IMG/VR virus record: IMGVR_UViG_3300045988_061800 | Coordinates: 1 to 54,645 of that record | Reading direction: 5' to 3' (one strand) | DNA: 54,645 bases | Origin: a virus | Part shown: piece after piece, positions 1-54,645 of the stretch | Numbering within the stretch: the first letter of the stretch is position 1 | Layout: every line of letters begins with the position of its first letter | Translations under genes and position numbers: made by a program | Notes under the pieces: generated by a model | Databases searched by the model: none | Told to the model about the DNA's origin: nothing | What the model saw: the letters and a program-made list of their open reading frames with translations, nothing else

Positions 1-55
1 TGCCGACCTGTTCGGTGCCAACCTGCGCGGTGCCAACCTGAGCGATGCCAACCTG
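1..55. repeat. Terminal direct repeat: bases 1-55 identical to 54591-54645 (circular-contig overlap)
   Basis: Both ends read tgccgacctgttcggtgccaacctgcgcggtgccaacctgagcgatgccaacctg. Confidence 0.95.
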
Positions 56-21079: not shown

Positions 21080-21128
21080 AGTGCCAAGTGCCTCCGGGCA
21101 ATGCCTGGACGAAGCGTGCCGAGTGCCG
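21080..21128 (+). promoter_or_regulatory. Late-gene motif pair B: AGTGCCAAGTGCCT (21080) and CGTGCCGAGTGCCG (21115)
   Basis: Same motif as at terL, 60-108 nt 5' of the portal start. Confidence 0.7.
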
Positions 21129-21171
21129 AGAGTAGACCTTATACGGGTCTGTTCTTGGCACTTTTTTGTTT
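21123..21171 (+). terminator. Strong intrinsic terminator between the Com-like gene and portal
   Basis: 16-bp stem GTGCCGAGAGTAGACC / GGGTCTGTTCTTGGCAC (with G.U pairs), a 7-nt loop, then TTTTTTGTTTG. The 5' arm starts inside motif copy 2. Confidence 0.75.
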
Positions 21172-21187
21172 GTCTGGAGGTGACAGA

Positions 21188-22663
21188 GTGACTGAAAACA
21201 ATACTGTTCGAGCTATATCCGAGTGGCCGGTCAATGGGCTGACTGGGCGTAGAAAAATTTACACCGCCAAAAAGAAAGTTACCCCGGAAAATGTGGTGGA
21301 GGTGCTGGGCAAGGCACTGGCCGTGCATCGCATCAACAGTGCGGAAATGTCCTATTTGTATGACTATTACAGAGGCAAACAGGACATCCGGCTGAAAGAT
21401 AAAATCGTCCGCCCGGAGATCAACAACAAGGTGATGATTAACCGGGCGAACGAAATCGTGGTATTCAAGTCTGCTTACCTTCTGGATGGCCCAATCCGTT
21501 ATGTGTCCAACGGCGGAGAAGATGATATTTCTTCTAATGTGAATACATTGAATGAATATATGCGAGCCGAGAGCAAAGACACTCTCGACAAAGAGCTGGC
21601 AGACTGGATGCACATCTGCGGTGTTGCGGTCCGCATGGTCCTCACTGACGAAGTCGGAGAAGAAGACGGGTCCCCGGCATCCATATATACCCTTGACCCA
21701 AGAGCGGCGTTTTGCATCTACCATAGCGGAGTAGGGCAGAAAAAGGTCGCTGGTGTGCTGGAACAGGTAGATGATGAGGGACAGCCCTACTTCTGCGTGT
21801 ACACCCCAGAATGGTATTTCGAGGTGCAGAACGGTCAGATCACTAAGCAGGAGGGCCGTACCATCCCCTACATCCCTATTGTGGAGTATGTGAACAATGA
21901 CGCCCGCATGGGTGCGTTTGAGCCGGTCATCCCAATCCTGAACGCAATCAACATGATTGAATCCAACCGGCTTGACAGTATTCAGGATTTCGTCAACGCC
22001 TTTGATGTGTTCCAAAACTGTGAGTTAGAGGACGGTCAATATAAGGAACTGGCAAAGGGCGGGATGGCAATTACTATCAAAAGCGTTCAGGCTGGTATGG
22101 AGGCCAAAGTATACCGCATCGCCTCTGAACTGAACCAGACCAACACGCAGACCATTGTGGACGATTTGGAGGACGCATACCTGACCATCTGCGGGATGCC
22201 GAACCGGAACGGAGGTTCCTCTACCAGCGACACTGGGCAGGCGGTCATTTACCGAGATGGATGGTCTGCCGCTGAGAGCCGGGCCAAGGACACGGAAAAG
22301 ACATGGGAGCGGTCGGAACGGGAGTTCCTGCGGCTGGTGCTGTATATCTGCCGTGAGACTGGCGATTTGGATTTGCAGTTGGCAGACATCAAGCCGGAGT
22401 TCACCCGCAAGAACCTGTCCAATATCCAGTCCAAGGCGCAAGTTCTGGCGGAGATGCTGAACAACAGCAAGATTCATCCGAAGTTAGCCTTCCAGTACAG
22501 TGGGCTATTCAGCGATCCCGAATCTGCGTACCGCGTAAGTATGGATTGGTACGAGGAAAACCAGCGCAAGATGGAGCGGAGCCTGCGGGATGAACTGGCG
22601 GCGGAACGATTTAATGGGAGCGACCCGGCCAATCCGCAGGCCGGCGGCGGTGATACTGAATGA
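21188..22663 (+). CDS. Portal protein (SPP1 gp6-like)
   Basis: GTG 21188 lies 7 nt after GGAGG. The track start 21101 would include the terminator. 491 aa, between terL and the MuF-like gene. Confidence 0.8.
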   Translation: MTENNTVRAISEWPVNGLTGRRKIYTAKKKVTPENVVEVLGKALAVHRINSAEMSYLYDYYRGKQDIRLKDKIVRPEINNKVMINRANEIVVFKSAYLLDGPIRYVSNGGEDDISSNVNTLNEYMRAESKDTLDKELADWMHICGVAVRMVLTDEVGEEDGSPASIYTLDPRAAFCIYHSGVGQKKVAGVLEQVDDEGQPYFCVYTPEWYFEVQNGQITKQEGRTIPYIPIVEYVNNDARMGAFEPVIPILNAINMIESNRLDSIQDFVNAFDVFQNCELEDGQYKELAKGGMAITIKSVQAGMEAKVYRIASELNQTNTQTIVDDLEDAYLTICGMPNRNGGSSTSDTGQAVIYRDGWSAAESRAKDTEKTWERSEREFLRLVLYICRETGDLDLQLADIKPEFTRKNLSNIQSKAQVLAEMLNNSKIHPKLAFQYSGLFSDPESAYRVSMDWYEENQRKMERSLRDELAAERFNGSDPANPQAGGGDTE

Positions 22664-24968: not shown

Positions 24969-26039
24969 ATGGATTTGAGAGAAGTTTTTACTCCTGCTGC
25001 GATTGCGGCCAACTGGATTGAGGTTGCCTCCAATCAGATTCCTTATCTGGGCGCGACCTTGTTCCCTGCCCGCAAGAAGGCCGGCCTTGACCTGTCCTGG
25101 CTGAAAGGCTCCCGTGGGCTACCTGTCTCTCTGATGCCCTCCGCATTCGACGCGAAGGCCACCTTCCGTGATCGGATTGGATTTGAGAAGCTGGAGACCG
25201 AGATGCCTTTCTTCCGTGAGGGATACAAGATCAAAGAGAAGGACCGGCAGGAGATGCTGCGGGTGCAGGAGTCTACCGACCCCTACGCTGCCGAAGTGAT
25301 TGCTCGTGTATTTGACGATACCCGAGATCTGGTTGACGGTGCAAATGTCGTGCCCGAGCGGATGATTATGCAGCTCCTGTTCCCCGAGGGTGGAGACGTT
25401 GGTATTGCCATTAAAGCAAACGGTGTGAATTACACGTACAAGTATGATACAGACGGTTCTTGGAAGACCTCCAACTACACCGCACTGACTGATACTGCAA
25501 CTTGGGACAAGCCCTCTACGGCTGACCCCTTTGCGGCGTTCAAGACAGTCAAAGACGCTATCCGATCTAAGACTGGAACTGAACTGACGGTCGCCATTAT
25601 GAACTCTTACACGTTCAATCTGCTTTCCAAGACGGATGCAGTAAAGAATCGTTATTTGACCACTAATGGCCTGTCTCTTGGCTATCTGACAGACGCCGAA
25701 GTAAAGGCGGTTGTGGAGTCTACTTCTGGTCTGCGGATTGCCATTTACGACAAGCAGTACCGGGACGAGAGCAAGGTAGCCCATGCATTTGTGCCCAATG
25801 GGTATGTCTGCCTGATTCCTGACGGCGCACTCGGTGGCACTTGGTATGGAACAACTCCGGAAGAGGCGGATCTGCGTGGAGCGTCCAGCGCAGAGGTTTC
25901 CATTGTGAATACAGGTGTTGCGATTACCCGTATTCTCCAGGAGCATCCTGTAAACATCAACACCTTCGCGTCTGAAATCGTCCTGCCCTCCTTCGAGCGT
26001 ATGGACGAGGTGGCTGTGCTCAACGTCCTGGGGGGATGA
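24969..26039 (+). CDS. Major capsid protein (lambda gpE-like family)
   Basis: 356 aa. N-terminal ...IPYLGATLFPARKKAGLDLSWLKG... and position fit the capsid-E family. Confidence 0.8.
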   Translation: MDLREVFTPAAIAANWIEVASNQIPYLGATLFPARKKAGLDLSWLKGSRGLPVSLMPSAFDAKATFRDRIGFEKLETEMPFFREGYKIKEKDRQEMLRVQESTDPYAAEVIARVFDDTRDLVDGANVVPERMIMQLLFPEGGDVGIAIKANGVNYTYKYDTDGSWKTSNYTALTDTATWDKPSTADPFAAFKTVKDAIRSKTGTELTVAIMNSYTFNLLSKTDAVKNRYLTTNGLSLGYLTDAEVKAVVESTSGLRIAIYDKQYRDESKVAHAFVPNGYVCLIPDGALGGTWYGTTPEEADLRGASSAEVSIVNTGVAITRILQEHPVNINTFASEIVLPSFERMDEVAVLNVLGG

Positions 26040-28988: not shown

Positions 28989-29507
28989 ATGGCAGGAATC
29001 CAACTTAGCACAGCGGGCGTCACCCTGTTGTACGCCGCAGAAGCCACCGCTGGCACTCGCCCGACTACTGGGTACGAAAAAATCTCCGAAATCAAAAGCA
29101 TTCCTGAGTTGAACCCTGAGCCCGACAACCTGGAAACAACGACCTTGGAAGAGACGGAGTGGAAGACCTATGTCCCAGGCTTGAAGGACATCGGCGGCGC
29201 ACTGTCTTTTACGGCAAACCTGACCGAGGCATCTATGACCGAGTGGGAGGGCGTTGTCGATGCCTATGATACGGCAGCCGCCGGAAATAAGGCTACTTGG
29301 TTCTGTATCGTGATTCCTGGGCTGACCAAGGCACTGTATTTCACGGGTCAGCCCTCCCCGATGGGTATGCCCGCTATGGAGGTCTCTGCTGTTCTGGAAA
29401 CAACTCTCTACATCACCCCGACCGGTGCGCCTCAGTGGGCAGCAAAGCCTACTGATCTGGAAAGTATGAGTCTGAGATCTTCTACCAAGAAAAACGTTGA
29501 GGTTTGA
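28989..29507 (+). CDS. Major tail protein
   Basis: 172 aa, immediately upstream of the G/T chaperone pair and tape measure. Confidence 0.75.
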   Translation: MAGIQLSTAGVTLLYAAEATAGTRPTTGYEKISEIKSIPELNPEPDNLETTTLEETEWKTYVPGLKDIGGALSFTANLTEASMTEWEGVVDAYDTAAAGNKATWFCIVIPGLTKALYFTGQPSPMGMPAMEVSAVLETTLYITPTGAPQWAAKPTDLESMSLRSSTKKNVEV

Positions 29508-31331: not shown

Positions 31332-31366
31332 CCCCGCTATCTTATATGAGGTGGCGGGGGCTTTTT
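31332..31366 (+). terminator. Terminator of the lipoprotein moron
   Basis: CCCCGC...GCGGGG stem followed by CTTTTT. Confidence 0.55.
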
Positions 31367-31374
31367 ATATCTTT

Positions 31375-31403
31375 AGTGCCAAGTGCTTCATTGCCAAGTG
31401 CCG
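31375..31403 (+). promoter_or_regulatory. Late-gene motif pair D (degenerate): AGTGCCAAGTGCTT (31375) and ATTGCCAAGTGCCG (31390)
   Basis: Same 15-nt register as pair C, 23-51 nt 5' of the tape-measure ATG. No convincing downstream hairpin. Confidence 0.6.
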
Positions 31404-31425
31404 TATTTCAGAAGGTGGTAGCATC

Positions 31426-34400
31426 ATGGCCGTTGATATTGATAGTCTGCAAATTGAAATAGAGGCAACTTCGAGTGATGCGGCGGCAAAAATCGACGCA
31501 TTGGCTACCGCGCTGACTAACCTGAAAACAGCGGCAAAGGGTGGAGCGGGGCTTACTACAGTTTCTAAGCAGATGCAGGCACTTGCAAATGCGGCAAAGC
31601 TGATAAATAGCAGCAGCATTAATACAGTAAAGTTAAAGGAAATGACAAGTGCACTTAACGGATTGTCTTCTATCCAGAAGTCCAGCGGCTTGTCCTCCAC
31701 AATCAACGCCCTTAAAAAGTTGCCTCAGATTAGCGAGTCCTTAGAAAAAGCAGATTTAGGAAAGTTTGCTGTTCAGATGAATCAGGTGGCGGACGCAATG
31801 CGCCCCCTGGCTACGGAGATGCAGAGAGTTTCCAGTGGGTTCTCAGCTTTCCCGATAAGGATTCAGAAGATCATCCAGAGCAATACCGGACTCGCCGCCT
31901 CGAACAATAAAGCAGCAAAAAGCTTCGGCGTTCTTGGGACTGGGATTAGTTCCGCACAGGCGAAGTTCGGCGTTTACCTGATTGCATTACGACAGATTGC
32001 TTCTGTTATGTCCAACTGGGTGAAGGAATCCAACGATTACGTCGAGAACTTGAATCTGTTCACTGTCGCCATGGGAGATTACGCAAAGGAAGCCAAAGCG
32101 TATGCAGAGGAAGTACATGCGGCAGTGGGCATTGACCCGTCTGAATGGATCAGAAACCAGGGCGTCTTTAAGCAAATAACTGGTGGCTTTGGAGTCATGG
32201 AAGAAAAAGCGAATCTTATGTCAAAAAACCTGACACAGTTAGGTTATGATATTTCTTCCTTCTATAACATTTCCATTGAAGAGGCCATGGAAAAACTGCA
32301 ATCCGGCATTGCAGGCGAAATTGAGCCACTGCGACGCCTTGGCTATGCAATTGACGTAGCTACCCTGCAAGAAGTGGCATATGCACATGGAATTGAGCAG
32401 AGTGTAAATACGATGAACCAAGCGCAAAAATCCCAGCTTCGTTATTTAGCGATTATGGAGCAGAGTGGGAACGTAATGGGGGATATGGCCCGGACGGTAC
32501 AGACCCCGGCTAATGCTTTGCGCATTCTAAATCAACAAATAACTCAGTTAACCAGAGCCTTAGGGAATTTATTGATTCCATTTTTACAGCAGATTATTCC
32601 GTATGTTCAGGCATTTGTGGAAGTCATTACTGATGCGATACAGGCATTGGCGCTTCTGGTTGGATTTGAATTGCCTGAGATTGATTATTCCGGGCTGGAT
32701 GGTGTGACATCTGGTGCCACAGATGCGGAAGATGCCATTGAAGGGGCTACTGGAGCGGCCAAAGAAATGAAAAAGGCGTTGCTCGGGATTGATGAATTGA
32801 CCATTCTGGAGCCGACTGCTTCTGGAGGCGGTGGTGGATCTGGTGGCGGAATTGGAGGCGATTTGGGTCTCGACCTTCCCGAGTATGACTTCTTAGCCGG
32901 GTTGGAAGAACAGGCATCTAAGATAAAAGAGCAGATGGAATCTATTTTGGGGCCAATCCTTTCTATTGGAGCTGGATTTGCTGCATGGAAAATTACTCCT
33001 AAAGTATTGAATTGGTTTAAGGATCTTAAGAATGGAAAGTTTAGCAAGATCGATAAACTCGCAGCGGGTATCGGGCTTGTAATTACGGGATTTACGCTTG
33101 AATGGCAAGGCGGATACGACATTGGTTACAATGGGCTGAACCTTGAGAACGCCATAAAAACAGCTATCGGAGCCGGACTAGGAATCGCTGGATCGCTCCT
33201 TATCTTTGGGACTGGGCCTCTTGGGTGGACAATTGGTATCGTAGCCGCGTTATCTGTTGCCATTGCAAGTATTACCATAGGGTATAACCGGAGACAAATA
33301 GATGACGAGATAAAAGAGCGGTTTGGAGAAATTGAACTGACAGTGGAAGAAGCCAAAGAACTGGCAGAAAGGATTATGTCATCTCCGCTTTCTATCCAAC
33401 TGGACATGTACGTGGAGGCAAAGACTGGTGCAAAAGAAGCAATCGAAAAGTATCTTGCATCTTCCGAAGAGTTTTCTTATCTGATTTGGAAGGTATCCGT
33501 TGGCTTTGAAGTAGATGATGCTGAATTGAGCAACAGTATTGATTCTATGATCGCTGACGCACAATCCTTCTTAAATGCACAGAGAGAAACGTATGCGCTT
33601 GCTGTCAACATCGGCTTTAGTGATGAAGGAATCAAAACTGAAATGGCGGCATTCGTAAACACGTATTTTTCTGAATCCTCCAGCGAAATGCAGCGTCTTG
33701 GGACGGAATTAAAGCAAACGATGCTAGATGCACTTGCCGATGGAGTCATTGATGAACAGGAAATGAAGACGATCAATGATTTGCAGTCTGAGGTAAACCA
33801 GATGCTTTCTATGGTTGCTGACGCTGAGTATAGAGCAAAGCTCAACAATGCAGTATATGAGCTTGGTGGAGACTTATCATATGAGAGTGTAAAGGACGTC
33901 AGTGAGAAATTGGGCAATATAGCGCAAGAGCAGCTTGATAGTTTAAAACAGACACATTTGGACGCACTGGCGGTTATCGAGCTAAAATATCAAACTGATG
34001 GTAATTATGAAGAATATACTGCGGCAATAGAAAACGAAATGCAGACTTATTTTGCAAATCAAGCACAGGTATCTGCAACCGCTTTTGAGCCTCTCATTGG
34101 AAAATTTAATGCGGCATTTTCTGACGCGCTTACAGAGGCGCAACCTGCGTTTGATCGGCCGGTAGAAGACCTCCTTGACAGGACGTTCCATCAATTCACT
34201 ACCGATGAAACCGGAGTGCTTGTCGGAGATAGTATAAGCGATTTTATGAGGAGCGTTGACCAACAATGGAAACTTGGGTTCCAAACGCTTGATATTACTC
34301 CAGAAGTGAGAGCTGCTTTGTCTGAAACGCTTGCCGCGTTGGAGCCTAGAGCAGAACAACTCCAAAAGATCGCTGATGATTCTAGAGCCGCAGGTATTGC

Positions 34401-35307
34401 TGTCCCGCAGTATGTTTCTGAGGGCCTGCATGACTACAACATGCTTGCAGCCATTTCCGGTGATATGGATGCTATCAACTATTTGCTTGGAGAAAAACTG
34501 TCTACAGACCCCAATTTCCTACAGGCACTTCAAACTGCGACAGATGCTGGCATGAACATCAATGAGGCTGTTGCAAATGGATTGTTAGACAATCTCGAAG
34601 TGAAAGAAAACGCTGATGGAACAATTTCGTTGATTAACGATACAATCGGCGAAAAAGTTCTAGAGGTTACACCAGCGTTAAAAGAAACCTTAAAAACTCT
34701 CGGTATAAATATGAGCAATGGGCTCATTGAGGGAGTTGAATCAAAGGACACAGAAGTATTTAACTCTGCAAATGGGATAGGTAAGCAGGTCGGAAACGGA
34801 ATTGCGGATGGACTTGATGATAGCACACGGGCAGTTAAGAACGCGGCAGATAGGCTTGTTGATATTGCGCTATCGGCAACAAAGACCGCAGCAAAAATTC
34901 ATTCACCATCTCGCTTGTTCCGTGATGAAGTTGGATTGAATATTGGCCTAGGTATTTCCGAAGGAATCGGTAATAGTAGAGATGCTATACTTTCGGAAAT
35001 TGAACTTACAAATCAGCGTATGGTGAGTGCTTTTTCAACTGGTTCGATTGGTAGTCTCTCTAGATCTTTTTCTGTGGAAGAAGTAAAGAGCATAAATACA
35101 CATACATCTGGAACCGTTACAGTAACAGACGGAAGAGAAGGCCAGCGGGAGATAAATCAAGAAATGATAAGCACATTGTTTGCCATAAGCCAGCAAATCA
35201 TTTCCGCAATTGAAGAGAACAGCGGAGACGTTTATCTGGATGGGGATAAGGTCGGAGAACGAGTAACGGAATACCAAAATAGGAAGAATCGCATTTTTGG
35301 CAGATAA
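31426..35307 (+). CDS. Tape measure protein
   Basis: 1293 aa, helical, with a Gly-rich segment GGGGGSGGGIGGDLG and TM segments. AAGGTGG lies 7 nt before ATG 31426. Confidence 0.85.
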   Translation: MAVDIDSLQIEIEATSSDAAAKIDALATALTNLKTAAKGGAGLTTVSKQMQALANAAKLINSSSINTVKLKEMTSALNGLSSIQKSSGLSSTINALKKLPQISESLEKADLGKFAVQMNQVADAMRPLATEMQRVSSGFSAFPIRIQKIIQSNTGLAASNNKAAKSFGVLGTGISSAQAKFGVYLIALRQIASVMSNWVKESNDYVENLNLFTVAMGDYAKEAKAYAEEVHAAVGIDPSEWIRNQGVFKQITGGFGVMEEKANLMSKNLTQLGYDISSFYNISIEEAMEKLQSGIAGEIEPLRRLGYAIDVATLQEVAYAHGIEQSVNTMNQAQKSQLRYLAIMEQSGNVMGDMARTVQTPANALRILNQQITQLTRALGNLLIPFLQQIIPYVQAFVEVITDAIQALALLVGFELPEIDYSGLDGVTSGATDAEDAIEGATGAAKEMKKALLGIDELTILEPTASGGGGGSGGGIGGDLGLDLPEYDFLAGLEEQASKIKEQMESILGPILSIGAGFAAWKITPKVLNWFKDLKNGKFSKIDKLAAGIGLVITGFTLEWQGGYDIGYNGLNLENAIKTAIGAGLGIAGSLLIFGTGPLGWTIGIVAALSVAIASITIGYNRRQIDDEIKERFGEIELTVEEAKELAERIMSSPLSIQLDMYVEAKTGAKEAIEKYLASSEEFSYLIWKVSVGFEVDDAELSNSIDSMIADAQSFLNAQRETYALAVNIGFSDEGIKTEMAAFVNTYFSESSSEMQRLGTELKQTMLDALADGVIDEQEMKTINDLQSEVNQMLSMVADAEYRAKLNNAVYELGGDLSYESVKDVSEKLGNIAQEQLDSLKQTHLDALAVIELKYQTDGNYEEYTAAIENEMQTYFANQAQVSATAFEPLIGKFNAAFSDALTEAQPAFDRPVEDLLDRTFHQFTTDETGVLVGDSISDFMRSVDQQWKLGFQTLDITPEVRAALSETLAALEPRAEQLQKIADDSRAAGIAVPQYVSEGLHDYNMLAAISGDMDAINYLLGEKLSTDPNFLQALQTATDAGMNINEAVANGLLDNLEVKENADGTISLINDTIGEKVLEVTPALKETLKTLGINMSNGLIEGVESKDTEVFNSANGIGKQVGNGIADGLDDSTRAVKNAADRLVDIALSATKTAAKIHSPSRLFRDEVGLNIGLGISEGIGNSRDAILSEIELTNQRMVSAFSTGSIGSLSRSFSVEEVKSINTHTSGTVTVTDGREGQREINQEMISTLFAISQQIISAIEENSGDVYLDGDKVGERVTEYQNRKNRIFGR

Positions 35308-35315
35308 ATTTTAAA

Positions 35316-35702
35316 TTGGAAGAAAGGGTGACAATATTGGTTCTTGAAATTGATGGGTTTGATATTGTCCCTTACATTTCATTTGGAGGAGTTAAGTGGC
35401 AACGGTCTGACGTGGACGGGGAAGGAGCGGGTCGTACTTTGGATGGCAAACTCAGAAGGAATCGGGTGGCAACAAAGCGGCGGCTGGATATTACCTGCCG
35501 TCCGCTCAATGCCGCCGAAACAAGTAAAGTCTTAACGGCAATTATGCCGGAATGGGTATCGGTTCGATATACAGACCCTCAAACAAACAGCATTGCAACA
35601 AGAAAAATGTATTCCAATAACAACCCGGCTACGTTTCAAATGAAGCAGAGGAACGGAGATGAACTATGGGGAGGGATCACATTCCCACTGATTGAGGAGT
35701 AA
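35316..35702 (+). CDS. Distal tail component (start uncertain: TTG 35316 or GTG 35328)
   Basis: Position directly after the tape measure. Confidence 0.55.
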   Translation: MEERVTILVLEIDGFDIVPYISFGGVKWQRSDVDGEGAGRTLDGKLRRNRVATKRRLDITCRPLNAAETSKVLTAIMPEWVSVRYTDPQTNSIATRKMYSNNNPATFQMKQRNGDELWGGITFPLIEE

Positions 35703-35705
35703 TAT

Positions 35706-36329
35706 ATGCCATACGAGTATCAAGTAGAAATTGGCGGAATAATGTACGGAATGGATAGCATTAAAAGCGCAAATATAAAGCAGCCGTTATTCGAGTATTT
35801 TGGAGCGGGGAATGCAATGCCTGCTGAGTTCCACATTACATTTATTCCTAAAGAGGAACCTCCCAGAATGGCAAAAATTGTACCATTCTGTAGAGAAGAA
35901 GGAGAAAAAGATTGGCATAAGCTAGGTATATTTTTTGTTGATGTAAGGAGTGAAGATAGACAGTGGAAAAATCTCATTGCCTATGACTCCATGCTGAAAA
36001 CCGAACAAACTTACTTGATTAGTGAAGATGTGGGTGAATGGCCAAGGGGGATGAAAGCGCTTGTTGCGGATATAGCAAGCCGTATAGATGTAGAAGTTGA
36101 TAGTAGAACAGTTATCAATGAAAGTTATGTGGTTGAATATCCAAACGATTATACAATGCGAGAAATTTTATGCCATATAGCAGCGGCCCATGCAGGGAAT
36201 TGGATTATTACGGCGGACGGGAAATTGTTGCTGGTTCCGCTTTTTACTGCAATGCCTCCAGAGACATATTACTTAATAGAAGACAGCGGAAGTGCCATAG
36301 TGTTTGGAGAGGATAGAATTTTGGTATGA
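35706..36329 (+). CDS. Tail/baseplate component
   Basis: Position. GAGGAG lies upstream. Confidence 0.55.
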   Translation: MPYEYQVEIGGIMYGMDSIKSANIKQPLFEYFGAGNAMPAEFHITFIPKEEPPRMAKIVPFCREEGEKDWHKLGIFFVDVRSEDRQWKNLIAYDSMLKTEQTYLISEDVGEWPRGMKALVADIASRIDVEVDSRTVINESYVVEYPNDYTMREILCHIAAAHAGNWIITADGKLLLVPLFTAMPPETYYLIEDSGSAIVFGEDRILV

Positions 36330-37534
36330 ATAACAAGTATTATGTAGGCCAAAAAGCATCTTCTTTTTTAAAATATGAAAAAACTCCTCCAGTTAGTAAA
36401 ATCCGGCTGTTTTGGGATGATGAAAATGCATTCGAAGCTGGAGATGATACAGGATACACAATAGAATTGTTTTGCCCATCAGCTACGCAGAAGATGGCAG
36501 ATAATATTTTGAATGCAGCAAAAGGATTTGTGTATCAAGGATTTTCGGCCCCTGGCTCAAGCCTAGTTCCAGAAGCGGAACTGGGGGATGGAGTAACGGT
36601 TGACGGTTTTTACGGAATGATAGCAAATCGGGATATAGAATTTGGCCCAGGGAATTTATCCGACATCTCTGCTCCAGGGGAAAAGGAAATTAACCATGAA
36701 TATCCTTATTTGAGCTCAGAAAGTAGAGAGCTAAAACGAAAAGTTACACTAGGGACTTCTTACTATGGCACTAAAATTACTCGAAAAAACGGATTAGAAA
36801 TTACCAAAACAGATAATAGCGGTGCAGAGAAAAGCCGGGTTATTTTAAACAGCGATATTTTGGCCTTTTATAATGACGATGGACAGGCAGCACTCTATTT
36901 TGATGCGGCCAGTGGAAGATACATTTTTCGCGGGGACATCAACATGCAAGGGGGATCTATTTATTGGGGAGATTCCTTCCCTTACAAGTCCCAGTTTTCA
37001 ACATCTCCGGATGGACCATGGCATGATAAGCAGCAAGAAGGAGATAAATACAGACGAGATACATATGATGGGGGAAAAACTTGGGAAGAGCCTTACCAAT
37101 TTGTCGGAACAGACGGACGAGACGGTATAGACGGTTCGGATGCAAGTGTTACATTCAACAATGTACTTCGAGCATTACAAAGAGCAGAGGCGACACAAAC
37201 AACATTTATTACAGCGGATGAGCTAGGGGCTCCCACCATTTATGGTGCCAAAATTTATGGTGCAGAGATATATGCTGGCGGTGTAGATGATATGGGTGGA
37301 CAAATTATTGGGCTCTTGGACACTGGGATGGTGGTATGGAACGGAGATGGAGAACGAGTATTAACTATTTCTGGAAATGCAGATACTGCGAGCCTTGTCA
37401 CGGGCTATAACATATTACGCTTTAACTGTCCGTATATGTCGGTAGAAGCCACATCATCAGTTTCCTTTCATGGACGATTAGTTTCTTTTGATGACGTAAA
37501 TGAGGTTTCAGGACTTTATCTGAGGTTTTCTTAA
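36326..37534 (+). CDS. Tail tip/baseplate protein (402 aa) with a short collagen-like GTDGRDGIDGSDA stretch
   Basis: ATGA overlap with the upstream gene. Position. Confidence 0.6.
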   Translation: MNNKYYVGQKASSFLKYEKTPPVSKIRLFWDDENAFEAGDDTGYTIELFCPSATQKMADNILNAAKGFVYQGFSAPGSSLVPEAELGDGVTVDGFYGMIANRDIEFGPGNLSDISAPGEKEINHEYPYLSSESRELKRKVTLGTSYYGTKITRKNGLEITKTDNSGAEKSRVILNSDILAFYNDDGQAALYFDAASGRYIFRGDINMQGGSIYWGDSFPYKSQFSTSPDGPWHDKQQEGDKYRRDTYDGGKTWEEPYQFVGTDGRDGIDGSDASVTFNNVLRALQRAEATQTTFITADELGAPTIYGAKIYGAEIYAGGVDDMGGQIIGLLDTGMVVWNGDGERVLTISGNADTASLVTGYNILRFNCPYMSVEATSSVSFHGRLVSFDDVNEVSGLYLRFS

Positions 37535-38682
37535 TGCTTCCTAAAATATATTCAGCGTTTCTCAACTTGACAAATGCATGTAACTTGGCGTGTCGCTATT
37601 GTTTTGTGGAACAGCATCCAGATATGATTTCCCTTCAGGTAGCGAAAGATGCAGCGGATTTTTTGGCCGCCAACGCGGGAGACGGGGTTCCGTCTATCAA
37701 CTTTTTCGGCGGGGAACCACTACTGATGTGGGACGCTATTATAGTCCCGCTGACCGAGTATGTCCGGGATCGGTATCCAGCATATAACCTTTCTATGACA
37801 AGCAATGGAACTCTGCTGAACCAGGAGCGGGCGGAGTATATGAGGAAGAAAGGAATAGGGCTCTTGCTTTCCATGGACGGAGACAGACGGACTCAGGAGC
37901 GCAATCGACCGCTTCAGGATGGCGGCTCCAGTTTCGACATTCTGGGGAAAAAGCTTCCTTTAATTTTGAAATACTTTCCTGATGTGATGTTCCGCTCTAC
38001 GGTAACACCGGAGACCGCAGTTGACTTGTTTCACGATATGATATTTGCAGAACAAGCTGGTTTCCGCACATTTTTTACTATGCCGGATAGTTTTGCAAAT
38101 TGGGACGGCACTGAGCCACTGGAGGAGGAACTTCGGCGCTATTCAGAGCATTATGTCGAGTGCTTAGAAAATGGATGGGAACCAATCTACTTCACACAGA
38201 TTGAAAAGTTTTTCCCCAAAATACTCTTGCACAACCAGGCGATCCAAGAGGGGGCAAACCGCGCCTATACCTCATGTATGGCCTGCGGCAAGTGCGGGCT
38301 GGGTTCTGGGCGCTATGCGGGGATTAACCTGAATGGAGATATCCTAGCTTGTCAGGAGTTCTTTTCACGAGGAGATAATCCATTCGTGATTGGAAATATC
38401 TATACTGGGGTGGTAGATGAGACGCGGAGACGACTTATGCAGAAATACGATAGCGCACAGGTTGAAGGGGATGGGTGCGATGAATGCCCCCTAAACCGCA
38501 TCTGTGATGGAGGGTGCGTGGCCAACAACTATATTCGATCGGGGAGTTTCCACCATATGCCCCCCATCTGCTGTCGGTGGAACCGTCTGCTATTCCGAGA
38601 GGCAATCTATCTAATGGAGCGGCTGGGCAAGGCAAGAAACAAACGCTTTTTAGAGAGGTGGCATATCTATGTTGCCAGATGA
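37534..38682 (+). CDS. Radical SAM enzyme with C-terminal SPASM domain (anSME/QhpD-like architecture, no N-terminal RRE)
   Basis: C16-x3-C20-x2-C23 (ACNLACRYC), GGEPLL, and SPASM pattern C-x13-G-x4-C ... C-x2-C-x5-C-x3-C (CDECPLNRICDGGC). TAATG overlap with the upstream tail gene. Confidence 0.85.
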   Translation: MLPKIYSAFLNLTNACNLACRYCFVEQHPDMISLQVAKDAADFLAANAGDGVPSINFFGGEPLLMWDAIIVPLTEYVRDRYPAYNLSMTSNGTLLNQERAEYMRKKGIGLLLSMDGDRRTQERNRPLQDGGSSFDILGKKLPLILKYFPDVMFRSTVTPETAVDLFHDMIFAEQAGFRTFFTMPDSFANWDGTEPLEEELRRYSEHYVECLENGWEPIYFTQIEKFFPKILLHNQAIQEGANRAYTSCMACGKCGLGSGRYAGINLNGDILACQEFFSRGDNPFVIGNIYTGVVDETRRRLMQKYDSAQVEGDGCDECPLNRICDGGCVANNYIRSGSFHHMPPICCRWNRLLFREAIYLMERLGKARNKRFLERWHIYVAR

Positions 38683-39601
38683 GCTGATCGAAGTACCGGA
38701 ATACCTGAAGGGGGAACTTACCGGTGCAAACGTCATGCCCATGTGCGACTTCTGTACGGAGATTGCCTGTGAGACAGATGGAATGGCCTGTGGTGAGACT
38801 TGCAGCCAAGGATGCCACGGGCAATGTACTGTGGTACAGTGCGGACAGTGTAGCGGCTGCCTGGGTGGATGCCAGATATGCGAATCATCCTGCCAAAATT
38901 CCTGTCAGTCCTGTCAGTCATCCTGCGAATCGGCAGCGCAAAACCCTACCAGCTATGGTTCCATCACGGTGGGTGAAGTTACCAGCCATACTATTGAAGT
39001 AACGCTGAAAGCCATTTCAAAAGCAACATCTTATGTGATCGCCTATCGGCCAGACAGCACGACCACTGCCCGAAATGTGGAAACTACGTCGCGAAATTAC
39101 ACGCTAACAAGCCTCGAGCCTAACCAGAGGTATGTAATTAACTACTATGGCAAGAACAGCTACGGAACCGGCCCTTATATGCCTTCCCCGGTCTATGCCA
39201 CCACAAGGCCAGAGATTGTAATTGAACCGTGGTCATGGACATCATCCAATGGGGCAGCGACGGACACACAGACCCGTAACGCCTACCAAATTTTACAGGG
39301 TAACCGGGCAGCGGATGACTTCCATCACAATGTATGGAACGACTTCATAGACAAGATTGTGGAGATGCGAGAGGCATACGGATTGTTTTGGACGACGGAC
39401 AGTGGGCGCTTTCCCTCCGCCTCCGGGTGCAAGGTGTCCGCCGGGGACACACTGACCGCCGAGATTTACAACGCGGCCAAGACCAATATAGGTTCCATAC
39501 AATCTACCGGGATACAGGATGTAGATCCGGGGGACGAGATAACCGGATACCACGTTCTTCACATCTCGGATGTTCTGAATGATATCATTGGAGGTCTGTA
39601 A
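38669..39601 (+). CDS. Cys-rich (16 Cys in residues 26-86) plus FN3-like domain protein; candidate rSAM substrate and virion component
   Basis: Overlaps the rSAM stop by 14 nt, with GAGAGGTGG RBS. CDFCTEIACETDGMACGETCSQGCHGQCTVVQCGQCSGCLGGCQICESSCQNSCQSCQSSC, then ITVGEVTSHTIEVTLKA...YVIAYRP...YTLTSLEPNQRYVINYYGKN (FN3-like). Confidence 0.8.
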   Translation: MLPDELIEVPEYLKGELTGANVMPMCDFCTEIACETDGMACGETCSQGCHGQCTVVQCGQCSGCLGGCQICESSCQNSCQSCQSSCESAAQNPTSYGSITVGEVTSHTIEVTLKAISKATSYVIAYRPDSTTTARNVETTSRNYTLTSLEPNQRYVINYYGKNSYGTGPYMPSPVYATTRPEIVIEPWSWTSSNGAATDTQTRNAYQILQGNRAADDFHHNVWNDFIDKIVEMREAYGLFWTTDSGRFPSASGCKVSAGDTLTAEIYNAAKTNIGSIQSTGIQDVDPGDEITGYHVLHISDVLNDIIGGL

Positions 39602-39762
39602 TGGATAGTCAAAAAATTATTCAAATGGCGGTAGCAATTAGAGAAGCAGCCTCTAGGATCACAGTATCTGGGCCAAACAATTGGACACAGTTGCTTGGTA
39701 TTATCCACACAGCGGAATCTATAGTTACAGAGGCGGGGAAGGAGGGAGAACATGGCGGATAA
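39601..39762 (+). CDS. Putative 53-aa protein
   Basis: TAATG overlap with the upstream gene. Under 60 aa, so absent from the track. Confidence 0.45.
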   Translation: MDSQKIIQMAVAIREAASRITVSGPNNWTQLLGIIHTAESIVTEAGKEGEHGG

Positions 39763-41827
39763 ACGGATTGGGGAATTGCCTCTTATCGAAGACCTTGATG
39801 ATGAGTCTTTTTTTGTGGCTGAACAACAAGGTGCAGCAGGACATATTACCGGCGCACAGATAAAGGGATTCGCCCGGAAGTCCGTGGAGGATATTGCAAA
39901 CGCTTCCCAGAAATCGGCTGAAGCGGCGGCGAAGAGTGCGTCTGCAGCCCAGGAGAGCGCTACTCAGGCGGAGGAAGCGCAGGAAGCAGCAGAGAGTGCC
40001 AAGAGTGGGGCAGAGGTTGCACAAAAAGCGGCGGAAACGGCACAAGGCGCCGCCGCGGACGCGCAGGCCGGGGCGGAGAGCGCCAAGACGGCAGCGGAGG
40101 CAGCGGCGGACGTTGCAGCGAAAGACGCCGCCGAAGGTGTGCGGGAAGAGCTCTCCGTCTATGTGGAGCAGACTAAGGCAAACGCCCAGGCGGCAGCAGA
40201 TTCGGCTTCGGAGGCCGCAGCGTCCCAAGAGGCCGCAGCAAAAAGCGCCCAGGGGGCGGCAGGCAGTGCAACTGCGGCGGCGCAGAACGCGGTGGATGCG
40301 GCGGATGCCAGAACGGCTGCCGAAGCGGCACAGGGCAAGGCGGAGGCCGCCCAGGTGGTTGCGGAAGCAGCCAAGAGCGGGGCGGAGACAGCGGCGGGCA
40401 CGGCCACTACAAAGGCCGAAGAAGCAAGCGCGAGCGCCGAGACCGCCAAGCAGTACAGCGGAAAACCGCCGAAGCCGCAGAATGGAACCTGGTGGGTATG
40501 GAACGCAGAGACCCAGGCGTATACCGATACCGGGATTAAGTCTGTTCTCTCCATTGTGAAATCCTATCCCTCTGTGGAGGCTATGGAGGCGGACAAGCTC
40601 AATATGCATGAGGGCGACCTAGTTATCATCGCCTCCACTGTAGATGACCCAGATAACTCCAAGCTCTATGTGCATGATGGCGTTGGCTGGGTGTATCTCT
40701 CCGATCTTTCCGGCGTGGAGGGCGTGGGGATTGCGGGCATCTCTCAGACTGACGGCAACCATGCGCCGGGCACCACGGACACCTACACAATTGAGCTGAC
40801 CGATGGGAGCTCATACGAGTTCACTGTCTACAATGGTGCGGATGGCGACGGAAGCGGAGACATGCAGTCTTCTACATATGACCCACAGGGCAAGGCGCAA
40901 GACATCTTCGGATATGCGGACAATGCAGCAAAAGGCAAGCAAGACAAGCTGAAAGGTACCGCTGGCCAGGTGGTAGGCTTTGACTCCGAAGGCAACGCAA
41001 TCCCCCAGGCGGCCCCCAGCGGATTGCCGGATGGCGGAACTGTGGGGCAGTTGCTGGAAAAAACGGAGGACGGGGCAGAGTGGGCAGACAAGCCTGTGAT
41101 GTATGTAAACATAACGCCACCGGCTGGAGATTCCCCGTTCGGAACGGCTGACCACACGATTGCTGAAATAACGCAAGCAGTCTTGAACGGGGTAACCGTG
41201 CTTTCAAAAATATCGGCAGGAACCGATACTAAAGTAATTCCACTTTCGACTGTAACAGACAGTGTGGCTTCCTTTTCGTCTACGTCTGTAGACTACGGCG
41301 GGTCTGTTATCGCCAATATTGTACCCCAAGAACAGTCCGAAGTGGTTATTATAGCGGAAGATCAATTTAGAGCAAGCCAGATTCTATACGATAAAGGAAC
41401 GAGTGGCCTTGATTCAGATGATGTGCAAGGCGCAATCAAAGAACTGGCTAAGAACAAGCAGGACTCCGCAGATGCTGTAACTGTTTCCGGCGGCGGCACG
41501 ATGCAGATGGGGGAGAGCCTGGGCAAAGGGCCGTACACCATTGAGGTGACAGAAGACGGAGAGGGCGGCGACCTCTCCGCCGAATATGTGGGCTACAGCA
41601 ACACGGGCAGCGGCCTGGAGGCCACCAATGTGCAAGAGGCTATCGACGAGCTGGCGGGGAAGGGCGGAGGCGAGTATCTGCCTTTGACTGGCGGGACTAT
41701 GACGGGGCCTCTCACTTTAAGCGGGCTGCCGACCAGCGAAAACCACGCCGCCAACAAGCAGTATGTGGATGGCTTGGTTGGTGACATCAATGCCATGCTG
41801 GATGCCATCAACGGGGAGGTGGTGTGA
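39752..41827 (+). CDS. Tail fibre with long Ala-rich coiled-coil repeats
   Basis: AAEAAQ/AKSA-type repeats over residues 45-240. C-terminal LPLTGGTMTGPL...AANKQYVD fibre motif. Confidence 0.8.
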   Translation: MADKRIGELPLIEDLDDESFFVAEQQGAAGHITGAQIKGFARKSVEDIANASQKSAEAAAKSASAAQESATQAEEAQEAAESAKSGAEVAQKAAETAQGAAADAQAGAESAKTAAEAAADVAAKDAAEGVREELSVYVEQTKANAQAAADSASEAAASQEAAAKSAQGAAGSATAAAQNAVDAADARTAAEAAQGKAEAAQVVAEAAKSGAETAAGTATTKAEEASASAETAKQYSGKPPKPQNGTWWVWNAETQAYTDTGIKSVLSIVKSYPSVEAMEADKLNMHEGDLVIIASTVDDPDNSKLYVHDGVGWVYLSDLSGVEGVGIAGISQTDGNHAPGTTDTYTIELTDGSSYEFTVYNGADGDGSGDMQSSTYDPQGKAQDIFGYADNAAKGKQDKLKGTAGQVVGFDSEGNAIPQAAPSGLPDGGTVGQLLEKTEDGAEWADKPVMYVNITPPAGDSPFGTADHTIAEITQAVLNGVTVLSKISAGTDTKVIPLSTVTDSVASFSSTSVDYGGSVIANIVPQEQSEVVIIAEDQFRASQILYDKGTSGLDSDDVQGAIKELAKNKQDSADAVTVSGGGTMQMGESLGKGPYTIEVTEDGEGGDLSAEYVGYSNTGSGLEATNVQEAIDELAGKGGGEYLPLTGGTMTGPLTLSGLPTSENHAANKQYVDGLVGDINAMLDAINGEVV

Positions 41828-43871: not shown

Positions 43872-45227
43872 GTGAATCAAATGAGTAAGCTCATTACATA
43901 CATCCCGCTCTCGTCCGTGGAGCGTATGGAGCTGCGGATCACCAACTGCCGCAAGACACTTTCCCAGGTCAAGTCAGAGACTGGTGCCCACTATGTGTTG
44001 AATGGCGGCATGTGGAACCCAGATGGCTCGGCCTGCCCGCTGCTCAAGGTGGGTGGGGTAATGCGCTCCGGCACACCATGGAGGACAATGGGCTACGCCT
44101 GGGACAAGGGCCCGGACATCCGCATGACCTCCGAGTACGAGGGAGCGGCCAACTTTATCGCGGTTACTGCCCTCATTGCCTCCGGCAAGCCGGTGGATAA
44201 GCCCTCCTATGGCTCGGCCCAGGGGGGCAAGCGGGGGCGCAGCGTCATCGGCCTGCGCGGTGGCAGTCTGGCCCTTTACTGCTCCGGCAACGGTACCAGG
44301 GATACAGCCACGCCAGAGACTCTGCGGGACGAGCTGGCCGGGCTGAGCTGGTCCTCCGCCGTCATGCTGGACGGGGGCGGCTCCAGCCAGTGTGACTTTG
44401 GCGGAGAGCGCATTACCGCCAGCCGCAAGGTGCACAACTGGATTTGTGTCTGGCTCAAACAGGGCGGCCAGAAGCCGCCGGAAGAGGAGGACAAGCCTAT
44501 GAGCAAGCATACTGTATGCCTTGACCCCGGACACGGGCCGGGCAACGTCAACGGATCCCCGGACGGTACATACAAGGAGTGGGAGTTTACCTGGGATATT
44601 GCACAGCGTATCAAGCCGTTGCTGGAGGCCCAGGGGGTGGGCGTGGTGCTCACCAAGACGGCGGACAACTACCCCAGCCTGACGGAGAGGGCCAACATCA
44701 GCAATAAGGCAAAGCCGGATTGCTTTGTGAGCATCCACACCAACGCCGCCGGGGAGGGCGGATGGTCGAGCGCGTCCGGGCTGGAGATCTACACCAGCGC
44801 AGGGCCTATGACGGCGCAGCGCAATGTTCTGGCCTCCAAGCTGGTCAACGCGTTCCACGCCGCCGGGGTCTCCCTGAGAAGTGAACCTATCAAGCATGAG
44901 ATGTATACCGTGCTCGCCAAGACGGACGCCCCCGCCGCACTCATTGAGTACGGCTTCCACACCAACAAGACGGACACGGAGTATCTCAAGGATAGCAAGT
45001 ACCGGGACAAGCTGGCCGAAGCCACCGCAAAGGGCATCTGTGAGTTCCTGGGCGTGGTGTGGCAAGCCGAACAGGGGGAGGACAACGCGGAGTACACCCC
45101 GGACAAATGGGCCTCTGAGGCGTGGCAGAAGGCCAAAGACAAGGGAGTTCTGGACGGCACCCGGCCCCGCGATAATATGACCCGGCAGGAGCTGGCCGTC
45201 GTGCTGGATCGGTTGAATCTGATTTGA
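43872..45227 (+). CDS. Endolysin: NAGPA/DUF2233-like N-domain, Amidase_3 domain and SLH-like C-terminal motif
   Basis: MLDGGGSSQ, then LDPGHG...SIHTNA (MurNAc-LAA), then WQKAKDKGVLDGTRPRDNMTRQELAVVLDRL. Confidence 0.8.
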   Translation: MNQMSKLITYIPLSSVERMELRITNCRKTLSQVKSETGAHYVLNGGMWNPDGSACPLLKVGGVMRSGTPWRTMGYAWDKGPDIRMTSEYEGAANFIAVTALIASGKPVDKPSYGSAQGGKRGRSVIGLRGGSLALYCSGNGTRDTATPETLRDELAGLSWSSAVMLDGGGSSQCDFGGERITASRKVHNWICVWLKQGGQKPPEEEDKPMSKHTVCLDPGHGPGNVNGSPDGTYKEWEFTWDIAQRIKPLLEAQGVGVVLTKTADNYPSLTERANISNKAKPDCFVSIHTNAAGEGGWSSASGLEIYTSAGPMTAQRNVLASKLVNAFHAAGVSLRSEPIKHEMYTVLAKTDAPAALIEYGFHTNKTDTEYLKDSKYRDKLAEATAKGICEFLGVVWQAEQGEDNAEYTPDKWASEAWQKAKDKGVLDGTRPRDNMTRQELAVVLDRLNLI

Positions 45228-49871: not shown

Positions 49872-49932
49872 TTTTTGAACTTTTTGTTCGTTGTTCTATT
49901 TGCACATATTTAAAAAGAAAGTTACAAATACT
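49872..49932 (+). repeat. attP-region direct repeat, copy 2 (abuts the integrase stop)
   Basis: Identical 13-mer and 17-mer blocks in the same order as copy 1. Confidence 0.75.
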
Positions 49933-50963
49933 TAGGAAACCTTCTGGATCTCTTTAGCCAAAAACGAAACATCTACGTGCGTATAGTGCTCGGTAACATC
50001 TCCATCGGAATGCCCTAAGATACGCTTTATAGCGACTTCGTCCACCCCGGCCATCCTCATCCGAGACGCGGCGGTATGTCTGCACCAATGAGGGGTTGCG
50101 GAAGGAAGTCCTAATTCTTCCATAACTTTAGAGAATAGCGGGCGGTATTTGTATGCGGGGATTGCATTCCCGTCATCATCACAGATAATAGTTTTACCGC
50201 CCCTGGACAGCCACTTGGTCAGATATGGCATGATTTTAGGATGCACCGGGACAATGCGATTTTTCCCGGCCTGGGTTTTTAGACCTCCTTGCAAATAATT
50301 CGCCTCCGAATGATACGAGAATCTGGTAAGCCCCAAAAACTCGGACACCCGGAATCCAGTATAACATAGCATTAGTACGGTATCAGCCCAAGGGAATCCA
50401 GAGGACGCCAGGTTCTCCAATTTACGCATTGTGATATCATCAAAAGCACCCTTTTCGTGCTTTGCTTCAACTCCTGGAAGTTCCACAAAAGCGGAATAGT
50501 CTTTATACACGATATCGCGCTCTGTTGCGTGCTTAAAAAGTGCTTTCATAAGCATTTTGTCATTGCTAATACTAGATTTCGATAATCCGTTTGCCTCGTC
50601 TTGGTCAATAATAGATTGTAGGTCGTCAATCGTAACCTTGCACATATCCTTTTTTTCTAGCACACAGAGGCGCGCCCAAGAAGCCTTATAGCTGGCGATA
50701 GAGGCAGCTCCTGCCTTTGCATACTTTTTGGCAGACCACTGATTGTATACGTCTCCCCAGGTAACGGCGAGTGACTTTGCCGGGATATTAGATGCCAAAT
50801 ATTTGTCAAGGGCCTCCTGTGCTTCTTTGGCAGTTCTGTGGTAGGATAGATACTTTTGCTTCCACAGTCCGGGCCGCTCCAAATACGACACCCTGACGGC
50901 GTATCGGTTTCTGCGGTTCGGGCCAAGATTTACAATACTTCCAGTTCCGTTCGCTCTTCTCAT
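49932..50963 (-). CDS. int: Tyrosine integrase
   Basis: HWCRHTAASRMRMAGVDEVAIKRILGHSDGDVTEHYTHV (R, HxxR, Y catalytic pattern). 343 aa. Confidence 0.9.
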   Translation of the reverse strand: MRRANGTGSIVNLGPNRRNRYAVRVSYLERPGLWKQKYLSYHRTAKEAQEALDKYLASNIPAKSLAVTWGDVYNQWSAKKYAKAGAASIASYKASWARLCVLEKKDMCKVTIDDLQSIIDQDEANGLSKSSISNDKMLMKALFKHATERDIVYKDYSAFVELPGVEAKHEKGAFDDITMRKLENLASSGFPWADTVLMLCYTGFRVSEFLGLTRFSYHSEANYLQGGLKTQAGKNRIVPVHPKIMPYLTKWLSRGGKTIICDDDGNAIPAYKYRPLFSKVMEELGLPSATPHWCRHTAASRMRMAGVDEVAIKRILGHSDGDVTEHYTHVDVSFLAKEIQKVS

Positions 50964-54423: not shown

Positions 54424-54645
54424 ATGGACTTAAAAAAGATTTTGGACGAGCATCTCCTTTGGCTGAATGGAGAGGGCGGCAGCCGTGCCAACCTGCGCTG
54501 TGCCGACCTGTTCGGTGCCAACCTGCGCGGTGCCAACCTGAGCAATGCCGACCTGCGCGATGCCGACCTGCGCTGTGCCGACCTGCGCTGTGCCGACCTG
54601 TTCGGTGCCAACCTGCGCGGTGCCAACCTGAGCGATGCCAACCTG
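54424..54645 (+). CDS. Pentapeptide-repeat protein, 5' portion (continues at base 2 after removing the 55-bp overlap)
   Basis: [60 protein letters not shown]... Confidence 0.85.
54591..54645. repeat. Terminal direct repeat (identical to 1-55)
   Basis: See the feature at 1-55. Confidence 0.95.

Follow-up and report, generated by a model that had tools for sequence, protein, structure and literature searches.

We analyzed a viral sequence of 54,645 nt (IMG/VR record IMGVR_UViG_3300045988_061800, positions 1 to 54,645; hereafter the window, meaning this whole stretch), which is the genome of a temperate siphovirus of gut Clostridia. Our subject is an open reading frame (ORF) at 38669-39601 in the tail module, whose product begins with a short leader-like segment and a dense run of cysteines, and the gene directly upstream, which encodes a radical S-adenosylmethionine (SAM) enzyme with a SPASM domain. 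A preliminary description of the region had drawn attention to the Cys repeat without citing this adjacent radical SAM/SPASM gene, which proved to be the decisive context. The features of the locus are as follows.

37534-38682, plus strand: radical SAM/SPASM enzyme (382 aa), predicted maturase; Pfam, NCBIfam and PDB matches
38669-39601, plus strand: Cys-rich protein (310 aa), candidate substrate and carrier; ORF, translation, 52 homologues, AlphaFold2 (AF2) model
38669-38743, plus strand: leader-like segment, residues 1-25, with the motif LIEVPEYL at residues 6-13 (nt 38684-38707)
38744-38926, plus strand: Cys-rich core with 16 Cys (residues 26-86), where multiple thioether cross-links are predicted
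38960-39208, plus strand: fibronectin type III (Fn3) domain, ~residues 98-180; Pfam fn3, AF2, Foldseek
39221-39598, plus strand: C-terminal four-helix domain, residues 185-310 (PWSWTSSNG...F(S/H)HxVWND...); AF2 predicted local distance difference test (pLDDT) score 96.5
39601-39762, plus strand: small conserved ORF (53 aa); homologues at loci with and without the radical SAM gene

Translation of 38669-39601 gave a protein identical to that described earlier, and the Cys repeat was found as noted: residues 26-86 read CDFCTEIACETDGMACGETCSQGCHGQCTVVQCGQCSGCLGGCQICESSCQNSCQSCQSSC, with 16 Cys in 61 residues, separated by gaps of 2, 4, 6, 3, 3, 3, 4, 2, 2, 3, 2, 3, 3, 2 and 3 residues. This core is preceded by MLPDELIEVPEYLKGELTGANVMPM and followed by 224 residues. 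Cys makes up 1.17% of the residues in the 18 other long ORFs of the window; against this background the binomial probability of at least 16 Cys in 61 residues is 1.5e-17, and any other stop-free 61-aa stretch, in any frame of the window, contained at most 11. The start codon lies 14 nt inside the end of the radical SAM gene and is preceded by the Shine-Dalgarno-like sequence GAGAGGTGG. An origin of the Cys region in a DNA tandem repeat was ruled out, the only repeat being a 9-nt unit in 2.2 copies.

Searches with the N-terminal 95 residues against Pfam and NCBIfam, and with four diverse homologues against NCBIfam, returned zero matches at E<=10. Membership of the Cys segment in the SCIFF, QhpC, metallothionein or CXXX-repeat families, the first three of which had been put forward as comparisons, was thereby rejected, and judged by these searches the segment belongs to no described target family. 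A tblastn search with the 310-aa protein likewise gave zero matches in 50,697 GenBank phage records. When a profile of 12 aligned N-termini was run against 5.8 billion proteins, 3 matches were obtained, a low number that probably reflects composition filtering and the short length of the profile. In the AF2 model the Cys segment has no confident fold: pLDDT is below 50 for residues 19-72, and a low-confidence helix extends over residues 73-89.

We identified 52 homologues of the protein, all from uncultured material. Their layout is a leader, a Cys-rich core, zero to three immunoglobulin (Ig)-like or Fn3 domains and a closing helical domain; some lack the leader and core and start at an Ig-like domain. 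Alignment of 12 N-termini (30-64% identity) showed invariant P10, L13 and E35 together with eight Cys. The core opens with a conserved block, CxFCxE(V/I)ACETDxMxCGExC, after which come C(Q/E)xxC units in varying number, and gain or loss of units brings the number of Cys among homologues to between 8 and 41, which is unlike a fixed metal site. The 25 residues ahead of the core had been read as leader-like, and this reading is strengthened by a motif, hydrophobic-x-(I/V/L)-P-x-x-L, that is conserved across the homologues within a leader of ~25 residues (variants LIEVPEYL, LIEIPESL, LIPIPQSL, IQIPAFL and FDGLPESL). A Cys-rich extension is present in 25 of the top 150 representatives of the helical domain (20 of these 25 with the leader motif) and is absent from the other 125. 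The motif goes with the Cys segment and with the radical SAM clades, independently of the carrier domains, and is lost together with the Cys segment. Three homologues (P0014, P0074 and P0083) have a tandem double motif before the Cys core, e.g. IIIPEYL...IAIPSFL or IDIPSAL...ISIPLFL.

The enzyme encoded at 37534-38682 matched Pfam Radical_SAM (E 2.8e-13) and scored 48.8 bits with the SPASM model TIGR04085, above the cut-off of 27. Among NCBIfam families PapB ranked first, followed by the nif11-peptide maturase, the SCIFF maturase, ScfB-related orphans, QhpD and CcpM, and the scores, each given with the curated cut-off, were 180.8/340 bits for PapB, 130.4/425 for SCIFF, 116.2/453 for QhpD and 99.7/500 for CcpM. 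Five other phage relatives of the enzyme likewise had PapB, SCIFF and QhpD on top, below the cut-offs, with PapB first in four of the five. Thus, the top hidden Markov model (HMM) matches of known chemistry (PapB, SCIFF, QhpD, CcpM) are all formers of Cys thioethers, which supports a stapling function, while the distance from all family cut-offs means that a different Cys-directed reaction is possible. The best PDB match was CteB (5wgg, E 1.8e-32), aligned to CteB residues 99-435. A CX3CX2C motif at C16/C20/C23 and eight SPASM cysteines (C248, 254, 273, 315, 318, 324, 328 and 347) are conserved across 10 phage homologues, a pattern consistent with a radical SAM cluster plus two auxiliary ones.

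Since the CteB alignment starts at residue 99, the N-terminal recognition region, the RRE, a recognition element for peptides that are made on ribosomes and modified after translation (RiPPs), is missing from the phage enzyme. No N-terminal RRE was found in Pfam, which gave Radical_SAM and Fer4_12 only, and the protein begins at the radical SAM core. The 53-aa downstream ORF was considered as a stand-alone RRE and rejected, as its homologues also occur at loci lacking the radical SAM gene. In the same GenBank phage records the enzyme had distant matches only, at <=32% identity, mostly in unannotated fecal contigs.

We next consider the pairing of the two genes in related phages, which was assessed at about 25 independent loci (L numbers; P numbers denote homologues of the Cys-rich protein), counting only homologues with a readable neighbourhood. 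In every assessable Cys-rich homologue (the window, L010, L022, L044-L046, L048-L051 and L109) the radical SAM gene lies immediately upstream, abutting or overlapping, whereas none was present within 5-6 kb of the Cys-less homologues (L011-L021, L023-L025, L047, L110 and L111). Two pairs of loci illustrate the difference. L046, with the radical SAM gene and the Cys-rich P0012, and L047, with the Cys-less P0027, have the same neighbour genes; and the order at L049 (Dit, a 1151-aa tail protein, radical SAM, Cys-rich P0024, Gp80-like) is retained at the syntenic L111 (Dit, a 1168-aa tail protein, Cys-less P0038, Gp80-like) without the radical SAM gene. The strict co-occurrence and these two pairs indicate that enzyme and leader/core segment come and go together, as a single unit. 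The 53-aa ORF, being present at both kinds of locus, lies outside this cassette and is part of the tail module.

For the reverse comparison, IMG/VR was scanned with an alignment of the phage enzymes and nearby Cys-rich ORFs were listed. Every one of the 17 distinct loci whose enzyme is at least 38% identical has an adjoining Cys-rich ORF, which is directly downstream in 16 and upstream in L079. The carriers are varied: some, of 194 to 739 aa, have the same leader motif, and one clade has a different leader, MALKEDDIKDLGLEIGEE, on ~500-aa proteins that match Hoc-like Ig decoration proteins (phrog_10993, E 1e-84), whose counterparts in cultured Faecalibacterium phages are without the Cys part. 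More distant enzymes (22-28% identity, plus that of L079 at 39%) adjoin tail-like proteins of 930-990 aa, and the C-terminal ends of those at L079, L082 and L091 are arrays of ~50 CExx or CDxCDx units. Large Cys-array proteins of this kind (395-979 aa, 55-74 Cys) are encoded at L082:36-2837, L091:38-2977, L079:1062-3941 and L081:1939-3126 beside distant radical SAM/SPASM genes, with array endings such as CETGCETSCETGCEVTCETGCE... or CDTCDACLFCDDCDTC..., and showed no match to the CXXX-repeat target models. The protein at L084 weakly matches the central tail fibre J. Other enzymes lie near small stand-alone Cys-rich peptides (49-133 aa), as listed here.

L073:2135-2536: Cys-rich peptide (133 aa)
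L074:2811-2960 and L074:2975-3214: Cys-rich peptides (49 and 79 aa)
L086:3476-3727 and L086:3603-3962: Cys-rich peptides (83 and 119 aa)

At L073 and L074 these peptides are additional to a Cys-rich Hoc-like carrier, and the L073 peptide is the sole stand-alone phage peptide to reach a sub-threshold score (15 bits) with TIGR04114/TIGR04117. Altogether, the Cys module was seen at the N- or the C-terminus of no fewer than four unrelated structural carriers, inside structural operons. A neighbour-joining tree of the enzymes separates the leader types by clade, as would be expected if enzyme and leader had co-evolved.

A further case was seen in Phage Phass-1 (OQ749652.1, genetic code 15), where an unannotated 174-aa ORF (L052:5138-5662) directly follows a radical SAM homologue 32% identical to the window enzyme. 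This ORF is readable only with TAG as Gln and is Cys-rich at both its N- and C-terminal ends (...CNTCNVGCDIQCRTCITCNSCKDRSCSDSD).

The residues around the cysteines suggest candidate acceptors. In cores of the Q/E type, Gln or Glu directly follows Cys in 62% of CX3C gaps and 90% of CX5C gaps, and Glu does so in 81% of CX6C gaps. In a D-type clade (P0016, P0019, P0024, P0025, P0026 and P0045), Asp occupies Cys+3 in 75-100% of the gaps of 4-6 residues, and every 2-residue gap reads CxDC. For PapB, a previous study showed that the minimal unit is CSAND and that the acceptor must be C-terminal to the Cys donor (PMC12373016). A fixed carboxylate C-terminal to Cys resembles this usage and is suggestive, although it does not prove which carbon would be attacked. 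The core has few aromatic residues (W 0.3%, F 0.7%, Y 1%) and no C/S-x-P/A-x-R sulfatase motif.

The preliminary description had also placed the Cys segment on a large folded protein, and the 224 residues that follow the core do comprise two confidently folded domains. The first matched Pfam fn3 above the gathering score (E 3.9e-7, 30.6 bits vs a cut-off of 25); its pLDDT exceeds 90, and Foldseek found Fn3 structures in the PDB at E 9e-8 with template modelling (TM) scores reaching 0.88 on the target. With the whole model as query, Foldseek gave Fn3 matches only, and the four-helix domain alone had no PDB or BFVD relative at E<0.01; a BFVD entry titled 'Six-cysteine peptide SCIFF [Myoviridae sp.]' reached only E 0.66 with it and was not used as evidence. 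This C-terminal four-helix domain is a large uncharacterised phage module, widespread in phages (606 clusters at 50% identity, E<=1e-3), and it stands at the C-terminus of proteins of 200-600 aa and at the N-terminus of ~790-aa proteins (L015-L021). It may be a docking domain.

The remaining landmarks of the window are listed below.

17985-19607: large terminase
21101-22663: portal
24969-26039: major head protein
28989-29507: major tail protein
31351-35307: tape measure protein
35316-35702: phrog_1194, directly after the tape measure gene
35706-36329 and 36326-37534, plus strand: tail ORF pair matching the N- and C-parts of tail protein phrog_32308/phrog_6616
39752-41827, plus strand: tail-fibre-like protein (691 aa), phrog_32072/8780 'tail protein'
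43872-45227: endolysin
49932-50963, minus strand: integrase

The tail module thus runs from the tape measure gene through phrog_1194, the phrog_32308/6616 ORF pair, the radical SAM gene, the Cys-rich ORF and the 53-aa ORF to the 691-aa tail-fibre-like protein and a 285-aa tail-fibre protein, and the genes around the Cys-rich ORF abut or overlap. Near-identical phages were found repeatedly in human gut metagenomes and IMG/VR, and the metagenome scan returned mostly this same phage. Distant relatives occur in metagenome-assembled genomes of Oscillospiraceae, Lawsonibacter, Ruminiclostridium and Acutalibacteraceae, all strict anaerobes.

Several observations concern the neighbouring genes and the sequence ends. 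The members of the ORF pair upstream of the enzyme overlap by 4 nt and match positions 104-223 and 389-584 of the phrog_32308 profile; they may represent a split or frameshifted gene, or two genuine genes of the tail tip, and this position is occupied in relatives by two genes (204+378 aa; 225+423 aa) or by one protein of ~1150 aa. The first ~230 residues of the 691-aa protein are Ala/Glu/Gln-rich, of low complexity and probably coiled-coil, and this composition creates spurious long ORFs (294, 221 and 131 aa) in other frames and on the opposite strand (39725-40609). In relatives, giant proteins (3453 aa and 2977 aa) with polyvalent-protein-type ART-PolyVal, LPD3 and PBECR5 domains are encoded a few genes downstream of the carrier gene (L046:9272-10924; L110:8883-10696). 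An identical 15-nt tandem repeat is present at both ends of the window (1-149 and 54485-54645) and encodes a pentapeptide-repeat protein, which on the start side is read from position 2. The sequence seems to be a circular or permuted genome cut within this gene; a simple join of the ends shifts the reading frame by one base, so the repeat copies probably overlap.

Taken together, we consider it probable that the radical SAM/SPASM enzyme installs multiple Cys thioether staples in an N-terminal extension that is retained on a virion-surface protein. The N-terminal 86 residues would form an add-on module, consisting of a short recognition leader and a Cys-rich core, and this module would be the substrate of the directly upstream, translationally coupled enzyme, which would recognize the leader without an RRE. 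By homology with CteB, PapB and QhpD, the enzyme would reductively cleave SAM, and the resulting radical would remove a hydrogen from an acceptor residue, at a backbone or side-chain carbon, the candidate acceptors being the Gln/Glu after most Cys and, in the sister clade, the Asp fixed at Cys+3. The Cys sulfur would then bond to the acceptor carbon as a thioether, and the cycle could be repeated up to 16 times. As in QhpC, the stapled segment would stay joined to the remainder of the protein, here the Fn3 and helical domains. Phages assembled in, and released into, anoxic reducing habitats can hardly rely on disulfides, and the predicted product would be a rigid, protease-resistant and redox-insensitive virion element that phages of strict anaerobes would use in place of disulfides. 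Adhesion or receptor contact might be a further function of the stapled tip. The suggestion of RiPP-like chemistry on a full-size protein, made in the preliminary description, thus gains support from the upstream enzyme gene and its strict co-occurrence with the Cys segment, with the chemistry itself remaining a prediction from homology.

Several explanations compete with thioether stapling. That the enzyme acts on the Cys segment by some other chemistry, i.e., formylglycine formation as by anSME, epimerisation, cyclophane-type C-C bond formation or methylation, is unlikely. It would accommodate the fact that every family score is below its curated cut-off, and anSME, which is among the matches (73.9 bits; PDB 4k37, E 1.7e-8), also modifies full-size proteins without an RRE. 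Against it, thioether formers ranked first for the window enzyme and the five phage relatives, the aromatics needed for cyclophanes are scarce in the core, and the absence of the sulfatase motif led us to rank an anSME-type reaction low. We regard as quite unlikely the alternative named in the preliminary description, a metal- or Fe-S-binding knot, or similarly a Cys ladder in a trimeric fibre, that stays unmodified while the radical SAM enzyme does something else. Metal ions are present in some phage fibres; the very high Cys density and the CX2C/CX3C spacing would suit such a knot, and the low-confidence helix over residues 73-89 would put Cys i and i+4 on one face. This explanation is opposed by the absence of any metal-binding family among the Pfam and NCBIfam results at E<=10 and by the variation in Cys number among relatives. 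No confident compact fold with a fixed ligand set was predicted for the segment, unlike for the flanking domains, and the joint gain and loss with a radical SAM enzyme of the thioether group would be left unexplained.

The leader/core architecture and the stand-alone Cys-rich peptides near radical SAM genes at L073, L074 and L086 would also agree with a RiPP precursor on a carrier, cleaved off and set free at lysis as a ranthipeptide or sactipeptide, e.g. a bacteriocin or signal. We regard this, too, as quite unlikely: neither the window nor the related loci with listed genes have a peptidase or exporter gene beside the pair, the core runs into the carrier through a conserved junction, CESSAQNPTSYGSI, with no conserved cleavage motif, and the occurrence of the module on unrelated structural carriers, at either terminus and in structural operons, is not what release would lead one to expect. 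An ordinary disulfide-rich stalk beside a radical SAM gene that is adjacent by coincidence seems highly improbable. Cys-rich extracellular modules are commonly disulfide-bonded, but the strict two-way co-occurrence with the enzyme, the co-evolution of leader and enzyme, and the cytoplasmic assembly of these phages in strictly anaerobic hosts all argue against it.

Some of our results weigh against thioether stapling itself. The enzyme is below the curated cut-off of every characterised thioether family tested (PapB, SCIFF/ScfB, QhpD, CcpM, RumMC and StsB), and the Cys segment matches neither the SCIFF and QhpC nor the CXXX-repeat target models. Having no RRE, unlike CteB-type maturases, the enzyme would need another surface for leader recognition. 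The assignment of thioether formation rests on homology, and virion membership of the protein, like retention of the segment in the particle, is deduced from gene position and from its Fn3 and Hoc-like relatives. A few dozen loci underlie the co-occurrence counts, which carry no correction for phylogeny.

A broader proposal is that, in many phages infecting anaerobic gut bacteria, virion-surface proteins are stapled by dedicated, RRE-less radical SAM/SPASM enzymes of the phage itself. The targets would include tail accessory proteins, Hoc-like Ig decoration proteins and large tail proteins, and from 8 to more than 50 thioether macrocycles would be formed per chain and kept in the particle; we judge the case for and against this generalization to be evenly balanced. 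Full-text literature searches found no description of a radical SAM enzyme paired with or acting on a phage structural protein. The system was found in many uncultured gut phages and in no cultured phage of the collection searched, which may account for the lack of an earlier description. What would be new is ranthipeptide- or QhpC-like chemistry on virion proteins, encoded by phages, performed by an RRE-less enzyme and directed by a new leader motif. If this is correct, radical SAM 'RiPP' chemistry extends beyond small secreted peptides, and viruses use it to harden or functionalise structural proteins. It would represent a new kind of covalent virion modification, provide a rationale for redox-proof links that replace disulfides in anaerobes, and give ranthipeptide-type cross-links their first structural role; to our knowledge, no clear biological role has yet been assigned to SCIFF-type peptides. 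The enzymes would also be candidate stapling tools for recombinant proteins, as they are compact and RRE-less, and are predicted to need a short linear motif and to tolerate fusion to large folded proteins at either terminus.

Thioether RiPP systems and the phage pair share a maturase with CX3CX2C and SPASM motifs and an adjacent Cys-containing substrate with a conserved leader; the phage pair differs in its sub-cut-off family scores, the missing RRE and its substrate, which is a 310-aa protein with folded domains in place of a short precursor peptide whose core is released. One such system is SCIFF with its maturase CteB (ScfB) of Clostridia. Common to both are a radical SAM enzyme whose SPASM domain has two auxiliary clusters, a Q/S/T/E-rich Cys core, an adjacent precursor gene and occurrence in Clostridia, and CteB is the closest solved structure to the phage enzyme. 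The phage enzyme is nevertheless far under the SCIFF cut-off (130 vs 425) and is without the ~98-residue N-terminal RRE region of CteB. Its substrate is a 310-aa multidomain protein with 16 Cys, whereas the SCIFF peptide has ~45 aa and 6 Cys, the SCIFF substrate model does not match the phage segment, and the leader motifs differ.

PapA/PapB, which makes freyrasin, resembles the phage system in its repeated short Cys-to-acceptor units, and PapB is the top HMM for the window enzyme. The Asp at a fixed offset after Cys in D-type phage substrates is like the CSAND unit, and recognition by PapB has been attributed to an RRE (PMC12373016). The phage enzyme has no detectable RRE, its score is 180.8 vs 340 bits, its substrate is a structural protein, and the dominant candidate acceptors in the window are Gln/Glu at Cys+1, not CX3D.

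In the QhpC/QhpD system, a radical SAM/SPASM enzyme installs several Cys thioether links in a polypeptide that is kept in a functional protein; QhpC is a small periplasmic enzyme subunit (gamma, of quinohemoprotein amine dehydrogenase) with three links and a quinone cofactor. This is the nearest functional precedent for links retained in a working protein, and the QhpD HMM gave 116 bits with the phage enzyme, but QhpC has no sequence relation to the phage segment, which has many more Cys and whose neighbours are tail genes. The CXXX-repeat families (TIGR04114/TIGR04117, maturase TIGR04115), which are defined bioinformatically, have Cys at every fourth residue in arrays beside a radical SAM/SPASM maturase. 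Related phage loci (L082 and L091) also carry very long CExx arrays; the window enzyme scored 79.2 bits vs a cut-off of 350, and the window substrate did not match.

Finally, covalent stabilization of virions is known from the isopeptide chainmail of HK97-type capsids and from disulfide-linked phage proteins. The role proposed here, covalent hardening of a virion protein, is the same, but the bond would be an S-C bond installed by a dedicated radical SAM enzyme, and it would be placed on an appendage or decoration protein rather than in the capsid lattice.

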